Numbered from the whole stretch's first letter, positions 1,787 through 9,939 are shown. The stretch: 62,342 bases of DNA, filler included, from Globobulimina sp. (GCA_003354225.1; 35 parts of 35 records of this genome joined end to end with filler, not necessarily neighbours in it), one strand, 5' to 3'. The notes: generated by a model not told the origin, from the sequence alone. Numbers and translations are program-made.

Positions 1787-1898
1787 GTTTTTTAGGGGTA
1801 AAAAATACGTATCACAGATAGCGAATCTTGTCAATATTTATAATTATTTCAAATGGTTGTATTTTTACTGGTTAGGAAAACTCAACTCCGAAAGTTGA

Positions 1899-2252
1899 GT
1901 TAATGGTTATAAATGTGGCTTTTTGATTTGCTATGACAATTGCTTCCCTGAATTGTACACAGCCTATAAAGAAATGGGGGTAGGTTTACTTTTTCACTCT
2001 TTTCATAATGCTGAAAATAAGCATGAGACCTGTATAAAAGATCTCATGGCTGCAAATCTACTTGTACGTTCTGCCGATAATCAAATTTGGATTTCTGCCA
2101 GTAATTCATCAAAATCATATTCACCGCTTCCGGCTACAATCGCTAGGCCTGATGGCAGTGCAAATAAGGGCAAACGACATGCTACATGTATCGTTATTGA
2201 GGATTACCCTAAAGCCAAACTTGGCTGGACTTATGATAATACCAAAATCTAA
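1899..2252 (+). CDS. Carbon-nitrogen hydrolase (nitrilase superfamily), C-terminal half only; integron cassette 1
   Basis: GFLICYDNCFPE catalytic-Cys motif, RSADNQIWI and IARPDG. An in-frame TGA at 1896 removes the N-terminal half. The stop codon lies inside the R'' site of attC1. Confidence 0.8.
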   Translation, partial: VNGYKCGFLICYDNCFPELYTAYKEMGVGLLFHSFHNAENKHETCIKDLMAANLLVRSADNQIWISASNSSKSYSPLPATIARPDGSANKGKRHATCIVIEDYPKAKLGWTYDNTKI

Positions 2253-2318
2253 CATTTGTTTCCAGCGGGTGTTTTTCGTCGCAAGCGCCCAAAAACACCG
2301 TTGAAACTGGCGTTATAA
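2247..2318 (+). mobile_element. attC site 1 (integron cassette recombination site), 72 bp
   Basis: R'' ATCTAAC, 5-bp spacer, L'' TTTCCAGC, stem CGGGTGTTTTT/AAAAACACCG, L' GTTGAAA, 5-bp spacer, R' GTTATAA. An unpaired extra base is present in L''. Confidence 0.92.
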
Positions 2319-2340
2319 GTCTGTACAATAGGATCAAAAC

Positions 2341-2760
2341 ATGAAAAAACGACCATCATTCGAAGACATTTATATAGAATTTGCGGAGTTAATTTCAAAA
2401 AGATCAACTTGCAAGCGTTTAAATGTAGGAACTGTTATAACCACAACCGATTATCGAAAAGTATTAGCTGTTGGTTACAATGGGAATGCTTCTGGTTTAG
2501 AAAATAGTTGTGATCGTGAAGAGCCAGGTAATTGTGGGTGTCTCCATTCAGAAGATAATGCTACAATCAACTGCGATGCGCCTCGAGAAATTAAAAAATA
2601 TGTTTTCGTTACACATTTACCCTGCCCAATGTGTGCCAAAAGATTAATCAATCTTGGTTATGTCCAGAAAGTAATTTACAAAAACAGTTTTCGTAACACT
2701 GAATCATTAGAAATTTTTAGTAAAGTTGGGATTCCTATCTTACAATATAAGGTTACTTAA
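2341..2760 (+). CDS. dCMP deaminase family (Zn-dependent cytidine/deoxycytidylate deaminase); integron cassette 2
   Basis: RSTCKRLNVG, GYNG, H-x-E (HSE) and PCxxC (PCPMC) motifs. AGGA ribosome-binding site at 2330-2333. Confidence 0.92.
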   Translation: MKKRPSFEDIYIEFAELISKRSTCKRLNVGTVITTTDYRKVLAVGYNGNASGLENSCDREEPGNCGCLHSEDNATINCDAPREIKKYVFVTHLPCPMCAKRLINLGYVQKVIYKNSFRNTESLEIFSKVGIPILQYKVT

Positions 2761-2767
2761 CTTCGAC

Positions 2768-2860
2768 TTATAACCATTCATTGCTGCTGACCCTGACCAC
2801 AAGAGGCGAGCCTCTTATTCCCTCCTTGCGGTCGGCGGCCCCTGAACTCAACCGTTATGC
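2768..2860 (+). mobile_element. attC site 2, 93 bp
   Basis: R'' TTATAAC and R' GTTATGC with inner stem CTGACCACAAG/CTTGCGGTCGG. ACTTATAAC (2766-2774) is the exact reverse complement of GTTATAAGT (2312-2320) at the cassette start. Confidence 0.88.
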
Positions 2861-2884
2861 CTTACTCGGTAATGACAAAATCAC

Positions 2885-2913
2885 TTGGCATGTACATATA
2901 TTATACATATAAA
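2885..2913 (+). promoter_or_regulatory. Sigma70-type promoter of the TA cassette, with an overlapping imperfect palindrome (candidate operator)
   Basis: -35 TTGGCA (2885-2890), 17-bp spacer, -10 TATAAA (2908-2913). ATGTA...TACAT dyad at 2890-2908. Confidence 0.7.
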
Positions 2914-2919
2914 TAAACT

Positions 2920-3192
2920 ATGAAGATGACATGGGATCCAAATCAAGCGAATTTGAATTTCAACAAACACAATATTCGCTTTTCGGATGCAGAGTCTGTA
3001 TTTTATGATCCTTATGCCATTACTATAGAGGATATTTCATCTGAAGGAGAGCAGCGCCATATTACTATCGGAATGGATTCAATTGCACGAGTTTTAGTTA
3101 TTGTTTTTACATATCATGAAGATGAAATCAGATTAATATCTGCACGTCGTGTAACAAAAAAGGAAATACGCCAATATGAAACAGGAATATGA
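2920..3192 (+). CDS. brnT: BrnT family toxin (type II TA ribonuclease); integron cassette 3
   Basis: WDxxxAxxNxxKHxIxFxDAxxVFxDP N-terminus and IRLISARRVTKKE C-terminus; 90 aa. Confidence 0.92.
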   Translation: MKMTWDPNQANLNFNKHNIRFSDAESVFYDPYAITIEDISSEGEQRHITIGMDSIARVLVIVFTYHEDEIRLISARRVTKKEIRQYETGI

Positions 3193-3424
3193 CTTCAGTA
3201 AAGGTAAAAGGAGCGCTGTTTTACCACAAAAGGGTAAAACAAGGATTACAATTTATCTCGATAATGACGTTATCGAAGAATTCCGAAATCGTGCCGACAA
3301 ATCTGGAACCGGCTATCAAACATTGATCAACAAAGTATTAAAAGCTCATCTCAATAAATCCAATAATCCTATTGATGAAAATACTTTACGACGTGTCATT
3401 AGAGAAGAACTAAAAGCTGTTTAG
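3176..3424 (+). CDS. brnA: BrnA family antitoxin
   Basis: MKQEYDFSKGKR, ITIYLDNDVIEEFR and GYQTLINKVL motifs; overlaps the toxin by 17 bp. Confidence 0.9.
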   Translation: MKQEYDFSKGKRSAVLPQKGKTRITIYLDNDVIEEFRNRADKSGTGYQTLINKVLKAHLNKSNNPIDENTLRRVIREELKAV

Positions 3425-3438
3425 TACAATATCAGCAG

Positions 3439-3471
3439 GCATAACCCATTGCAGCGGACCACAAGGGGCGC
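3439..3471 (+). mobile_element. attC site 3 (left arm only; cut by the contig end)
   Basis: AGGCATAAC (3437-3445) is the exact reverse complement of GTTATGCCT (2854-2862). The following ATTGCAGCGGACCACAAG resembles the left arm of attC2. Confidence 0.8.
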
Positions 3472-3903
3472 NNNNNNNNNNNNNNNNNNNNNNNNNNNNN
3501 NNNNNNNNNNNNNNNTTAATTAATTAANNNNNNNNNNNNNNNNNNNNNNNNNNNNNNNNNNNNNNNNNNNNCGACAAAAAGCACCGCGATGATAGTAATT
3601 AAATCAAGCAAACATTGTAAATTGATATGCTTCGAAACATAACTTTGTTCCTTTTGATTGCATTCCAAATAACTGTTTTTAGATGTTTTTTGAAAGTTAT
3701 TTGTCGCTGACAATGAGTATCAAGACGGATAATTAGAAACAGATTTTTTCGTTGATATATATTGTGACTGCATGTTTCGATGTTGATCATGACACAGGAA
3801 AAATATTAAAAAAGTATGACAAAGTCATCTATTTCTTTGGCGATTTTAAAATAAACAAAATGTGTAAATACATACGTTTTCATTGTGACTGAAGACGGCT
3901 GAA

Positions 3904-4704
3904 TTAACTCGTTTGTGATACTTTTATTGGAAATTGTATAATTATCTGTCGCAGAGCCAAATGAATAATCTGATTTGTTATACCAATATACCGAATAAAT
4001 GCATCGTTGGCATAAATGATTGTTGTTAATATCTGAGAAGGAGCGTATGCCCCAATATATGCATTTGGACTGGTGGAGGTTTGTAAGGCAGCAACGAATA
4101 TATAGTCGTCAGTCTCTGCCGGGCACAATGACCGCAAATCTATCATCGATGTGCCATGGGAATAGGGTTGAAAATAACATTTTTGCCAACCAGATGCCTC
4201 TAAATTTGATAATGGATAATTGCTTACCACTCCACAACCATAGCATGGAGTTGATATTAATACACGCATAGAACATCCGGATGCTTTATACTGATCAGGT
4301 TCTTGATATTGTACATAACAACCGGCCGCGGGACACGTACAACTGCTACACCTTGGTGTTCTAGACCAGGTAACATTTCTTATGCCGCTCGAGTCCGGAT
4401 AATTATATAGCATACGATTTGTATCCCAATTATAAGCTTCTGATACATATATTGTATTTGTTGCCGATGCAGCTACAGTCCAATCACTAGGCAATGTATA
4501 GAAGGAATAATATTCACATCCATCAGTTGTACCATAGGGATCGGCGCCACTAATGGTCGCATAACACATTCCATCATAATGTACTGCGGGAAAACCAAAA
4601 CTGTTGCAATAACTGTCACATCCATAGGTTTTGCTGCTAAACAATGACAACGCGATTATTGTCAATATTGTTGATAATGAGAATGATGAGATCGTAGCTG
4701 CCAC
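3904..4704 (-). CDS. Secreted Cys/Tyr-rich eukaryotic protein of unknown function
   Basis: Hydrophobic signal-peptide-like N-terminus and many Cys. The ORF track starts it at GTG, so the true start is uncertain. Confidence 0.55.
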   Translation of the reverse strand: MAATISSFSLSTILTIIALSLFSSKTYGCDSYCNSFGFPAVHYDGMCYATISGADPYGTTDGCEYYSFYTLPSDWTVAASATNTIYVSEAYNWDTNRMLYNYPDSSGIRNVTWSRTPRCSSCTCPAAGCYVQYQEPDQYKASGCSMRVLISTPCYGCGVVSNYPLSNLEASGWQKCYFQPYSHGTSMIDLRSLCPAETDDYIFVAALQTSTSPNAYIGAYAPSQILTTIIYANDAFIRYIGITNQIIHLALRQIIIQFPIKVSQTS

Positions 4705-5487: not shown

Positions 5488-6411
5488 TCATTGTTGATTA
5501 ACATAAGCTAAATATGCATTAAACTCAAGTTTAGTTTGTCGTTTATTAACTGCTTGTTTTTGAAATTTGCCATCTTTAACATACAATATTCTGTCCGCAT
5601 ATACTTCCAAATCTCCATTATGTGTCACCATGATGCACGTCGTCTTTTTATTTTGGTTGATTGATAATATAATATCCATAATTTCGATTGTATTTCTTGT
5701 GTCTAAATCGCCAGTGGGCTCATCTAACAACAATATTTCCGGCTCATTTGCCAATGCTCGAGCTATGGTCACGCGTTGTTGCTCACCACCGGACAATTCT
5801 GATGGTAGATGTTCTAAGCGGTCGCCTAAGCCCACCAACTCTAATAAGGATATTGCCCGATTCTTACATGCCTTTTTGCTCAATGTTCCATGTATAATCA
5901 TCGGCAATTCTACATTCTCAAATGCTGACATTGTTGAGATTAAGTTGAATGTTTGAAATACGAAGCCAATCTTCCTTAGACGCAGGTTTGCTAAGTATCT
6001 ATCCGATGAATCTTTGTTAACTAAAGATGATAATATCTCAATTGTGCCTGTTGTGGGATAATCCAATGTGCCGAGCATATTTAGCAAAGTTGTTTTGCCT
6101 CCACCCGATGGTCCGCGTATCATTAAAAATTCGCCACGTTTGATGGCTCCAAATTCGGTGTCTCGCGCCAATGTGACACCGGATAATGCATTGATCACTT
6201 CATCACGACCGACAATGGTAAATTGCTTCCGGACATCTCGTACTTCAATTATGGCTTCGCCTAACTGTTTGCTTATATACTCACTCACATTATTATTAAG
6301 GTTGTTATTATTCGATCTCTCTTCGACAATATTGGAGGGAATATCTTCAGTTTTTTCATCATTTAAAAGTTCCGTACCATTGTGGCTGTTTGTTGATGCA
6401 TAGGTGCCCAT
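5488..6411 (-). CDS. ABC transporter ATP-binding protein, LolD/MacB/FtsE type, with a low-complexity N-terminal extension
   Basis: Walker A GPSGGGKT, Q-loop GFVFQTFNL, signature LSGGEQQRV, Walker B LLLDEPTGDLD and H-loop VTH. Confidence 0.93.
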   Translation of the reverse strand: MGTYASTNSHNGTELLNDEKTEDIPSNIVEERSNNNNLNNNVSEYISKQLGEAIIEVRDVRKQFTIVGRDEVINALSGVTLARDTEFGAIKRGEFLMIRGPSGGGKTTLLNMLGTLDYPTTGTIEILSSLVNKDSSDRYLANLRLRKIGFVFQTFNLISTMSAFENVELPMIIHGTLSKKACKNRAISLLELVGLGDRLEHLPSELSGGEQQRVTIARALANEPEILLLDEPTGDLDTRNTIEIMDIILSINQNKKTTCIMVTHNGDLEVYADRILYVKDGKFQKQAVNKRQTKLEFNAYLAYVNQQ

Positions 6412-7295: not shown

Positions 7296-8504
7296 ATGGG
7301 AAACAAAATACCCAGTGGAAACCTTCAAGAACGACAGATAAATGAGAAAATAAAAGAAAGGTTGCTTGAATTGTCCAAGTCAGGCCGGTTTGCCAAGAGA
7401 GTGCTGTTATTATCTACCAAATCAGCTGGTAATACCACTATTTGTCGATCTGTGAGTGCATATAGTTCAAGTCATAAACGTGAGACGCGGCAATTACAGC
7501 ACAAATGTCTAGAAATGGCAATGAATCTATGTCAAATGACTGGTGATCACCAAAGCTATGTTAAGTTGCAAAGTTTATCTGTTGACAAAGAAAATGATTT
7601 AGCAGAGATTGCTATGGTTGTATCTAATATATGGAACAGAAAAACATGTCAACAAAAATATTCATACCGTCACATTGATAGGAAATATGGTGATATAATG
7701 ATGGATAATATCGCATATTTCTTTGATAAAATTGGTTTGATTATGTCTCCAAAATATACACCGATTGAGGAAGATATTAGGCGATGCCACATTTTTTGTG
7801 GCCGTGCAATTGCAGAATCAGAATGTGCAAATTGCAGAATTTTTATGTGCAAATTAATTGATGTTCCAACATATTATTTGAATAATATAAAGAAGAGAGG
7901 TTATATGGTGTTTGATAATGTTGATGTTGTGATATTTATTGTTTCTTTGAGTGATTATGCTGTTTATAACCAATCTGTGAGCAAAAACGCAATGAAACAT
8001 TCAATGGAAATGTTTGATACAGTTCTAAATTGTAAGTGGTTGGACCATGGCAGCAGTATTGGCCTGATGTCATTATATTATACTGAAGTCATTTTATTTT
8101 TAAATAAATCTGATATATTTAAGGAGCAGATAAAAAATGGTATCTCTTTATCAGAGTGTTTTAGTGTTGCTGATGGATGGCACATTGAAGACGATTATGG
8201 AAATATAAAACTAAGTATGAGTGTACCATGCATTGTCAGGAATGTGTGCAAAGAGACTCATATGGAAATGGCTGTTGATATTATACTGTTAATTCAGAAA
8301 TATGTGGGCGTGACAGATAAGGATGAAGCAGAATTGGATGCATATTGCAGTGATGGTGCCAAGTTTATACAGAACAAGTTTGAAATGCTGATTAAAAATA
8401 AAAATAAACACGTTTATTCTTACATAACATGTGGTATTGATAAAGATCACATGGCGAAAATATTTTGGGATGTACGACAGATTCTGATGAGACGGGGAAG
8501 CTAA
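7296..8504 (+). CDS. Divergent heterotrimeric G-protein alpha subunit
   Basis: MGN N-terminus, helical domain YFFDKI..YTPIEEDI, FDNVDVVIFIVSLSDY, ILFLNKSDIF (G4) and YITCGID (G5). G1 and G3 are degenerate. Confidence 0.85.
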   Translation: MGNKIPSGNLQERQINEKIKERLLELSKSGRFAKRVLLLSTKSAGNTTICRSVSAYSSSHKRETRQLQHKCLEMAMNLCQMTGDHQSYVKLQSLSVDKENDLAEIAMVVSNIWNRKTCQQKYSYRHIDRKYGDIMMDNIAYFFDKIGLIMSPKYTPIEEDIRRCHIFCGRAIAESECANCRIFMCKLIDVPTYYLNNIKKRGYMVFDNVDVVIFIVSLSDYAVYNQSVSKNAMKHSMEMFDTVLNCKWLDHGSSIGLMSLYYTEVILFLNKSDIFKEQIKNGISLSECFSVADGWHIEDDYGNIKLSMSVPCIVRNVCKETHMEMAVDIILLIQKYVGVTDKDEAELDAYCSDGAKFIQNKFEMLIKNKNKHVYSYITCGIDKDHMAKIFWDVRQILMRRGS

Positions 8505-8677: not shown

Positions 8678-9939
8678 CAGCTCTACAGTTTATCCTTGCT
8701 GTTATTCGTTATCATTGGCATTCCACAGTTACTCGTAAGACATGCACAGCGCTGTCGATCCATCAATAAAACACATATACAGTGGTGTATCGGATAAGAT
8801 GCAGACGCTATGACCACTTTTTCAATNNNNNNNNNNNNNNNNNNNNNNNNNNNNNNNNNNNNNNNNNNNNTTAATTAATTAANNNNNNNNNNNNNNNNNN
8901 NNNNNNNNNNNNNNNNNNNNNNNNNNTAATGTCGGGCATTTAATGTAACCATAAAAACAGTGTTGCGGAAAAGTTTTTAGACTGCCGCAAATCTGTTTCA
9001 CAACTACAAAAGCTCCACACTTCTGTTCCGCAAAAAAGGTGCCCTAATCAGGTTGTTTTCTCCCACCAAGTGTGATAAATCTGCATATGCACTGGGAGAT
9101 GATTGGCAGTCTTGTCGGGGATGTGGATGGTGGATCCAATACAAACCCACCATCCCTGTGGATTGTGGCGCACCTCAATACATCCTCGGCAAAATGCTGG
9201 CACTTTAGGTCAAAGCGAGGGGGTAAAATCTTGAACCTCAGCGAATACAAACCACCTTGATAGGATCCGACCCCTTGTACTTACAACTTGCATATTCCTA
9301 CTTGCTTTTACTTCGGATTTGAATGCGTTGAGTCTAATCCAAGGGCATGTAATTGAATTTATCTTATTTCATATGTAAAACCATTCATTCTGGCCATTAT
9401 TAATTGTTTTATGCTACATTCTGATTGATTTTAATACATATCGGTGATTTATTCATTCATTCAAAGCAAAATTTTGCTTTATTAATCCACCCTCTTCTTG
9501 TCCATCCAGCTTTGATACATCTCATTTATCAAATTTTAGGTACTTTATCACTTTTTACTTGTTTGAGATTGCCAATTAATGACTAATTGCCCATTTCCAT
9601 CGCCTTTTGCAGGAATTCCAGTGGAAAATTGATATATTTTTATATTAATAGATGGGGAATCCACTGCAAATCCTGTCCCTCCGTTAAATTAGTTTTGTTT
9701 TTGATTACGCAAAATGCGTAATCAAGGTAGATACTCTACCAGTGTGCTACCCTCATTTCCATATACATTACATCCAGCGGAAATATAATCATTTTGAGCA
9801 ATGTTTTATAGTCAGTAACATCAAAATCCATTCCTAATATTCGAAATATTTTATTATCCTCCTTTATTTTACCATCTACTTTGAATTGATGCTGCCGAAA
9901 TGATTTCCATGTACCATTATCCTTTTACTCCACTTTATA

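Follow-up and report, generated by a model that had tools for sequence, protein, structure and literature searches.

Deoxycytidine monophosphate (dCMP) deaminases of the DCTD/ComEB kind (structures 4P9C and 2HVV) are single-domain enzymes of about 140 amino acids (aa), with protomers of roughly 15-20 kDa, marked by a catalytic HxE motif, a PCxxC zinc motif and an allosteric G(Y/W)N(A/G) motif; dCTP activates and dTTP inhibits them, as set out in the available text of PMC12088426. A Cys-rich loop before HxE appears to hold a second-zinc site in the known enzymes, judging from the available part of PMC4683357. Within the same Pfam family the phosphate state of the substrate and the modification of its base can shift, examples being the PBCV-1 enzyme 7FH4, which uses dCTP besides dCMP, and mSCD-B5, which is selective for 5-methyl-dCTP (5mdCTP) (available portion of bioRxiv 10.1101/2024.12.05.627091). 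The anti-phage protein AvcD shares the deaminase superfamily fold and the zinc motifs, and has in addition an N-terminal P-loop kinase-like domain and an adjacent antitoxin small RNA (sRNA). Cassettes of sedentary chromosomal integrons each carry one promoter-less open reading frame (ORF) and an attC site, recombine at G|TT, have similar attC sites and include toxin-antitoxin (TA) cassettes in their arrays. The locus considered here, a predicted dCMP deaminase gene lying between two attC-like sites, is found in a stretch of 62,342 bases from a Globobulimina sp. assembly (GCA_003354225.1), called the window below. It is like the DCTD/ComEB enzymes in size, domain and motifs, and like the sedentary integron cassettes in layout; it differs from the former in a phenylalanine (F117) at the place of a near-universal tyrosine and in being carried by an integron cassette instead of a chromosome or phage genome, and from typical integron cassettes in that its cargo is a housekeeping-type nucleotide enzyme and no integrase is in view. 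With a probability of about 0.65, it is a housekeeping-type enzyme converting dCMP to dUMP that was captured as an accessory integron cassette.

The deaminase gene runs from 2341 to 2760 on the forward strand (positions are those of the window), starts with ATG, encodes 139 aa and has a Shine-Dalgarno-like AGGA at 2330-2333 (+), 7 nt before the start codon. An earlier annotation made by a model without database searches, here the sequence-only reading, had described a 139-aa zinc deaminase with HSE and PCPMC, and both motifs are in place: H69-S70-E71, part of an LHSE column conserved across 170 relatives, and P94-C95-P96-M97-C98. The allosteric motif is also present as G45-Y-N-G48, which is at least 90% conserved in the family and aligns with GWNG in 4p9c and GYNG in 2hvv, and a Cys-rich loop (C57/C65/C67) precedes HSE. 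The only domain is PF00383 (dCMP_cyt_deam_1; residues 11-113 of 139 aa, 52.5 bits against a cut-off of 25), and in PHROGs the protein matches phrog_174, 'dCMP deaminase', at 113.8 bits. Two solved dCMP deaminases match near full length, 4p9c (E 1.5e-21) and 2hvv (E 1.6e-18), and there are weaker matches to 1vq2, 7fh4 (E 1e-5) and 2w4l. 4P9C (138 aa) is presumably the cyanophage S-TIM5 enzyme, and 2HVV/2HVW we take to be that of Streptococcus mutans. Identity is about 35-40% to phage dCMP deaminases and about 29-33% to records named 'ComE operon protein 2'. The score against the ComEB equivalog TIGR02571 is 64.4 bits, below the cut-off of 219.45, and no comEA or comEC was seen among the scanned neighbours in the relatives' loci. 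The window protein is thus a predicted single-domain dCMP deaminase of the DCTD/ComEB kind and not a ComEB equivalog.

The window consists of 35 unrelated pieces of 1683-1686 bp each, joined by N...TTAATTAATTAA...N linkers; the deaminase cassette lies on the piece from 1787 to 3471, and its true context is these 1685 bp only (G+C content, GC, 0.368). On this piece the attC sites were sought with a covariance model, R1, built from 19 attC sites that stand beside true integron integrases in other genomes and containing no window sequence. Integrases were searched for with TIGR02249 in 401 genomes of one phylum, that of a Desulfuromonas metagenome-assembled genome (genomes G216-G613); 136 were above the curated cut-off, a high share of those sampled. 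Eighteen of the seed sites were picked by eye from 16 integrase-upstream stretches and one beside another genome's integrase, and the pairing of their R-boxes and L-boxes was confirmed with covariation in the seed alignment before the model was built. A simple palindrome scorer (AAC...GTT ends, with pairing of R-box and arms) served only for picking seeds: its strict form found nothing, even in the window, and its relaxed form gave 31 for the first site described below and 21 for the second, placed a true attC (locus L168) below 22 and made false matches in AT-rich window pieces, so that R1 replaced it.

Searched over the whole window on both strands with filters off, R1 gave its best match at 2245-2320 (+; 25.7 bits, E 0.0014) and its second best at 2766-2862 (+; 16.9 bits, E 0.15). 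Both lie directly 3' of stop codons on the coding strand, the first behind a hydrolase gene fragment and the second behind the deaminase. The third match, on a different piece, reached 14.8 bits (E 0.49), and the other pieces of the window lacked this attC family. In a control search of 989 kb with default filters, 50 of the 53 matches fell in the 16 integrase-adjacent stretches; these comprised the 18 seeds from those stretches and 32 new sites, all of them scoring at least 14.8 bits and every one on the strand predicted by the orientation of the integrase. The remaining three were the two window sites and the weakest match of all (14.4 bits), which lies inside the deaminase ORF of a relative (L049). 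R1 is a short-site model and gives the long attC sites of true arrays 14.8-29 bits, a range that includes the second window site. The first site, attC1 (2245-2320), matches the full model and has R'' ATCTAAC at 2247-2253 and R' GTTATAA at 2312-2318, with the crossover G|TT between 2312 and 2313; its bottom-strand hairpin folds at -12.8 kcal/mol (z -2.3), and its palindrome score is among the 12 best in 1.24 Mb. The second, attC2 (2766-2862, 97 nt), has R'' CTTATAAC at 2767-2774 and R' GTTATGC at 2854-2860. A third site, attC3, starts at 3437 with R'' GGCATAAC at 3438-3445 and is cut by the contig end at 3471 (+); it shows similarity to attC2 (2779-2792 with 3447-3460 at 86%, 2795-2808 with 3457-3470 at 93%). 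In Rfam only one sub-threshold match was returned (22.6 bits against 60, E 0.99), and a search for the DNA of attC2 and the following cassette in 208 and 301 genomes of two phyla gave weak matches within brnA only.

A second test, independent of the attC model, supports the same boundaries. On recombination at G|TT, the bases that follow the G at the 5' end of a cassette are part of the R' box of its own attC; complementarity between the two ends of each cassette is therefore expected. In the deaminase cassette GTTATAAGTC (2312-2321) is a perfect 10-nt reverse complement of GACTTATAAC (2765-2774), and in the next cassette GTTATGCCT (2854-2862) is a perfect 9-nt reverse complement of AGGCATAAC (3437-3445), a single GTT x AAC pair being testable there. 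The end pair of attC2 as it stands in situ reaches 6/8 (8-mers compared by hand), and a true integron (L168) shows a 7/8 cassette-end match, read by eye. In an R-box end test over the relatives' loci, 8/8 was seen in the window alone; 6 of 154 other testable loci reach 7/8, against a chance expectation of about 7.6 (3.35 pairs per locus). The computed circular junction of the deaminase cassette forms one long hairpin closed by the 10-nt helix (-13.3/-15.3 kcal/mol, z -2.05/-1.67). The two tests together outline a predicted 542-bp integron cassette, 2313-2854 (+), with the deaminase as its one credible ORF; the cassette begins with TTATAAGTC... and ends, behind its own attC, at the G of GTTATGC. 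The sequence-only reading had likewise seen the deaminase as the sole cargo of a mobile cassette beside a TA cassette, and the bounding sites, the paired ends and the adjoining BrnT/BrnA genes bear this out. The start that it had given, 2312, is the G of GTT, and 2313 is the first base of the cassette. The 1685-bp contig is probably a fragment of a cassette array, which may come from a sedentary chromosomal integron or from an integrase-less attC cluster. A promoter-like TTGAAA-17-TACAAT at 2301-2329 was not used as evidence, site counts being no higher than in shuffles.

The relatives of the protein form a large and very conserved family, nearly always of a single domain, to which it is 60-86% identical. 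A search of 5.8 billion proteins returned at least 2811 near-length relatives (76-244 aa), against 31 longer forms; the best 120 of these at least 2811 share 69-86% identity with the window protein, and all but two are 137-154 aa long. When 170 members are aligned, conservation reaches 90% or more in 79 of the 139 columns. Against the nearest relative with DNA (L081) dN is 0.14 and dS is saturated. Of 1364 phage records with a match, 1363 stay under 60% identity, the full-length ones listed being at 35-40%; in plasmid collections every match stays under 60%, those listed being at 29-35%. Among the longer members, P0141, P0145-P0147, P0155, P0158 and P0164 contain intein/Hint domains (PF07591, PF14890, PF13403) inside the deaminase. 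Two others (P0138 and P0144; 66-69% identical, 320-333 aa) join the deaminase to P-loop kinase-like domains (AAA_18, CoaE, AAA_17), an arrangement that recalls the architecture of AvcD.

The sequence-only reading had called for a phylogeny, and a quick maximum-likelihood tree, which has 176 rows, few columns and many unresolved forks and takes its root from sequences of ComEB and phages, gives it in part. The window protein pairs with one metagenome protein, P0001 (SH-aLRT 97), in a 12-member clade of metagenome proteins without taxonomic labels. Labels of the same phylum group together on the tree, with 17 changes where shuffling gives a mean of 31.1. The protein is part of a very conserved clade, separate from the ComEB equivalogs, whose members occur in Bdellovibrionota, Lysobacterales, Myxococcota and FCB-group bacteria.

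Genomic contexts were compared at 162 loci, of which 80 come from species genomes (52-76% identity), 80 from metagenomes (63-79%) and two from viral contigs. Within two genes of the deaminase the commonest neighbours are an RNase_T exonuclease (35/162), peptidase M1 (21), EF-G (20), an Exo_endo_phos nuclease (10) and RibD (7), and 273 of 333 neighbour clusters are singletons. In Bdellovibrionota (L025-L069 and L121-L159) the order is EF-G (-), an RNase_T-like exonuclease, the dCMP deaminase and peptidase M1, often followed by the Exo_endo_phos nuclease. Overall, the gene looks to sit in conserved core synteny in Bdellovibrionota and at scattered places on the chromosome in other groups; the former is in keeping with a nucleotide-salvage neighbourhood in these predators. 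The nearest relative with DNA (L081, 79% identity, on a contig of GC 0.359) has a collagenase-like gene on one side and, at a distance of 56 nt, a Fib_succ_major gene on the other, and has no attC. In one well-supported clade (L147, L150 and L151, with L161 on the contig of L150) the deaminases are longer (198-241 aa by ORF calls), have as neighbours a Mu-type portal gene together with a large gene that is unassigned, and are phage or prophage copies of the family.

Homologues flanked by attC sites or set in defence islands, which the sequence-only reading had proposed to count, did not appear: the 82 loci from metagenomes and viral contigs gave R1 no match, the 80 from genomes a single one, at chance level and within an ORF, and the 260 of 508 neighbour proteins scanned with PADLOC carried no defence-island signal. 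Eight of the 260 matched at E<=1e-12, all of them alone; by name or Pfam they are a protease, an ABC ATPase, a methyltransferase, ThiF, a kinase, DndA/SspA, a LolE-type transmembrane protein and QatD, and they look like widespread domains. That reading had also set a defence role against ordinary thymidylate-synthesis contexts for the homologues; the contexts found are largely ordinary, of a general housekeeping kind, and are not thymidylate operons. Two loci were considered as further cassette carriers and rejected. At L034 a 190-bp palindromic element (5693-5882) stands 119 nt upstream of the deaminase, and the same termini recur in inverted orientation about 1.8 kb apart (7556-7620 and 9330-9381); the repeats do not bracket the gene, the best integrase match (88.6 bits) is below the cut-off and R1 found nothing, and the element looks like a pair of miniature inverted-repeat transposable element and insertion sequence, not attC sites. 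L023 has small ORFs and a true intI on another contig, and its intergenic DNA contains no attC.

The window protein departs from its family at four well-conserved positions (columns at least 85% conserved), E72D, V75T, N107Y and Y117F. Of these, Y117F and N107Y are common only to the window protein and P0001, to which it is 86% identical and which lies on a 13,968-bp contig; specificity or regulation could for this reason differ in the two. In five structures compared by a weak alignment, 7FH4, the enzyme that accepts dCTP, has Cys at the position of residue 117. A link between this residue and dCTP use is at present a lead only. Literature searches returned nothing usable on the role of the aligned Tyr; a paper on APOBEC describes a substrate-stacking tyrosine, Y315, in the part available, and its homology to position 117 is not established.

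Most simply, these observations would reflect the capture, as a cassette, of an ordinary dCMP deaminase that is under feedback regulation and stems from an environmental lineage of low GC, its chemistry and regulation being predicted from family membership. The sequence places the catalytic centre at H69/E71 and C95/C98 and a dCTP/dTTP allosteric site at G45-Y-N-G48; the enzyme is most likely a homohexamer, stimulated by dCTP and subject to inhibition by dTTP, that deaminates dCMP to dUMP, and the dUMP would feed thymidylate synthesis and rebalance salvaged deoxynucleotides. The gene would have come from a housekeeping lineage resident in chromosomes; the nearest of its relatives with DNA lies next to a Fibrobacter-type gene, on a contig of 36% GC. 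The captured gene would now serve as an optional pyrimidine-salvage module moved by the integrase at G|TT. Expression could come from an upstream promoter or from read-through, and the neighbouring BrnT/BrnA cassette may help to retain the array.

Several points weigh against this account. The contig of 1685 bp shows no integrase, and attC2 taken alone is marginal, its fold in situ doing no better than shuffles (z -0.45; about -0.1 to -0.2 on repetition). The adjoining cassette holds a fragment of a gene, which shows parts of the array to be in decay. Neither thyA nor another pyrimidine gene is present near the window gene or among the conserved neighbours of its relatives, and the selective benefit, an extra dCMP-to-dUMP route that supplies thymidylate or rebalances pools, is one that we infer. 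Members of this Pfam family can take unexpected substrates, such as the 5mdCTP-specific phage enzyme described in the available portion of bioRxiv 10.1101/2024.12.05.627091. The residues at two positions are unusual: position 117 is Y in 168 of 170 family members and F in 2, with Tyr aligned to it in the solved monophosphate-specific enzymes 4p9c, 2hvv, 1vq2 and 2w4l, and position 107 is Y in the window protein and N in 146 of 170.

That there is no integron here, and that palindromes arisen by chance, or a chimeric assembly on so short a contig, imitate one, is hardly credible. The short contig without a visible integrase, the marginal attC2 and the fact that the sequence comes from one probable source study only leave some room for it, but the two best R1 matches of the 62 kb each follow exactly on one of two successive stop codons, on the coding strand, the other matches of at least 14.8 bits in the control all lie in integrase-adjacent arrays on the expected strand, and complementarities like the 10-nt and 9-nt pairs of the two cassettes occur in none of the 154 relatives' loci tested. 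A silent passenger, that is, a capture that is unexpressed or decaying and has no present function, is unlikely, although cassettes of chromosomal arrays are mostly promoter-less and silent according to the available text of PMC13108822, the upstream cassette is a truncated gene, a near-universal Tyr has been replaced, and promoter-like sites number 4 where shuffles give 6.4. The ORF itself is intact, with its start codon, its Shine-Dalgarno sequence and all catalytic and allosteric motifs; and since Y117F is common to P0001, 14% diverged, the change predates the split of the two and has been kept since.

The sequence-only reading had taken packaging as a cassette to imply a defence or resistance system, which is not sustained by the DCTD motifs, the ordinary contexts of the relatives or the profile scores; both readings of this sort rest on the cassette context only. 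A minimal anti-phage cassette, in which a single deaminase domain lowers dCMP and dCTP and starves phage replication, is decidedly improbable. Defence genes are known in integron cassettes (at least 16 of 179 Vibrio cholerae cassettes are reported active in the available text of PMC12409362), Y117F is rare and the dCTP-accepting 7FH4 has no Tyr at the aligned position, and the rare fusions in P0138 and P0144 show kinase-like partners in the family. There are also weak local matches to the relevant profiles, PADLOC dCTPase (E 1.2e-9) and the NCBIfam anti-phage dCTP deaminase NF041025 (34.7 bits), but the former has its best stretch at residues 4-53 on profile positions 340-388 of 630, and the latter covers residues 68-127 only and is far below the cut-off of 400. 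As the sequence-only reading had noted, the kinase-like domain of AvcD is missing from the single-domain, attC-bounded 139-aa protein; the locus also has no known or visible adjacent antitoxin sRNA, and nothing in the 542-bp cassette would act as trigger, antitoxin or sensor. The GYNG motif is retained, and the feedback control by dTTP that it predicts argues against uncontrolled nucleotide depletion. Nor do the attC and PADLOC scans of the relatives' loci given above favour such a role, and the main text of an integron-defence preprint, the part available, names no deaminase. Detoxification of 5-methyl- or 5-hydroxymethyl-dCMP or of a cytosine-analogue monophosphate, as a form of resistance or pool sanitation, is also improbable. 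In its favour, mSCD-B5 is a relative of shifted specificity that prefers 5mdCTP and 5-hydroxymethyl-dCTP (bioRxiv 10.1101/2024.12.05.627091, available portion), a vertebrate dCTP deaminase of the same fold metabolises gemcitabine and decitabine (PMC12184417, available text), and Y117F and N107Y are specific to the lineage; but the changes are few, four among the columns at least 85% conserved, the nearest relatives are 79-86% identical, and the only one of them with DNA (L081) is chromosomal. Moreover, in 104 of 149 contigs the modified-cytosine deaminases are found together with homologues of thymidylate synthase (same preprint, available portion), and the window locus has none. A further idea is very improbable, namely that the lineage of the window protein and P0001, set apart by Y117F and N107Y at positions otherwise 99% and 86% conserved, has acquired a new function as a deaminase carried in cassettes and less strict about phosphate or base (accepting, for example, dCTP/dCDP or 5-modified dCMP). 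It would then be a minimal one-domain module for nucleotide-pool defence or sanitising that integrons spread, lacking AvcD's sRNA and kinase-like domain. The dCTP-accepting 7FH4 has no Tyr at the aligned position; its match to the window protein is weak, and the window protein groups tightly with a clade whose sole member with DNA, L081, is chromosomal. Should the Y117F lineage prove to be altered in specificity, no smaller defence module acting on nucleotide pools would be known, which is a long shot.

On the preferred reading, a captured housekeeping enzyme, the dCMP deaminase would be a new type of cargo for a known kind of element and of modest interest as such; full-text searches, as far as the texts were available, brought up no account of integron cassettes with a dCMP, deoxycytidylate or cytidine deaminase as their cargo. 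Integron cassettes have come to be seen as a reservoir of genes for defence and resistance, so that any unexplained one is open to such a reading; the window cassette is a useful counter-example, which suggests that arrays may also hold metabolic spare parts such as pyrimidine salvage. The nearly unchanged housekeeping cargo and its 79%-identical chromosomal relative, of similar G+C, would form a rare before-and-after pair for the birth of a cassette.

Upstream of the deaminase lies a 5'-truncated carbon-nitrogen hydrolase fragment of 109 aa (1923-2252, +) that starts at its ICYD motif; it matches PF00795 at 17.7 bits, below the cut-off of 23.2, over profile positions 147-207 of 256 only, and is a presumed degenerate cassette. 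Its 5' junction pairs with its own attC over 4 nt only and so fails the cassette-end test, which fits a damaged cassette. The junction, AATG|GTTATAA (within 1896-1912), mirrors the start of attC2 and not that of the fragment's own attC, and points to an earlier rearrangement or, at the left end of the contig, to a junction of attI type. The left end itself (1787-1905) is AT-rich, non-coding DNA (GC 0.29) that runs 119 nt beyond this first junction and then stops, with integrase and attI out of view; it terminates in AATG|GTTATAA (1902-1912), a perfect reverse complement (11/11) of the start of attC2, and could be the remnant 3' half of an attC or an attI-like junction, R1 finding no full attC there. 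Downstream, the next cassette carries brnT, a toxin gene of 90 aa (2920-3192, +; PF04365, 94.2 bits, profile positions 1-77 of 77), and brnA, an antitoxin gene of 82 aa (3176-3424, +; PF14384, 41.9 bits), which overlap by 17 nt; the attC3 start that follows carries the 9-nt complement of 2854-2862.

Among the viral relatives, a contig recorded as Virus Rctr197k (L167, KX853510.1) has at 2956-4305 a 450-aa phage 'putative head morphogenesis protein' whose opening deaminase domain shares 72% identity with residues 1-98 of the window protein; its only Pfam match is PF00383, at residues 25-114, and either a mis-call or a deaminase fusion associated with the capsid is conceivable. The integron piece is probably bacterial DNA in a mixed assembly. 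The pieces of the window are mostly AT-rich (GC 0.28-0.42). Some ORFs on them look eukaryote-like by eye, such as an ABC ATPase with an Asn-rich N-terminus at 5488-6411 (-).

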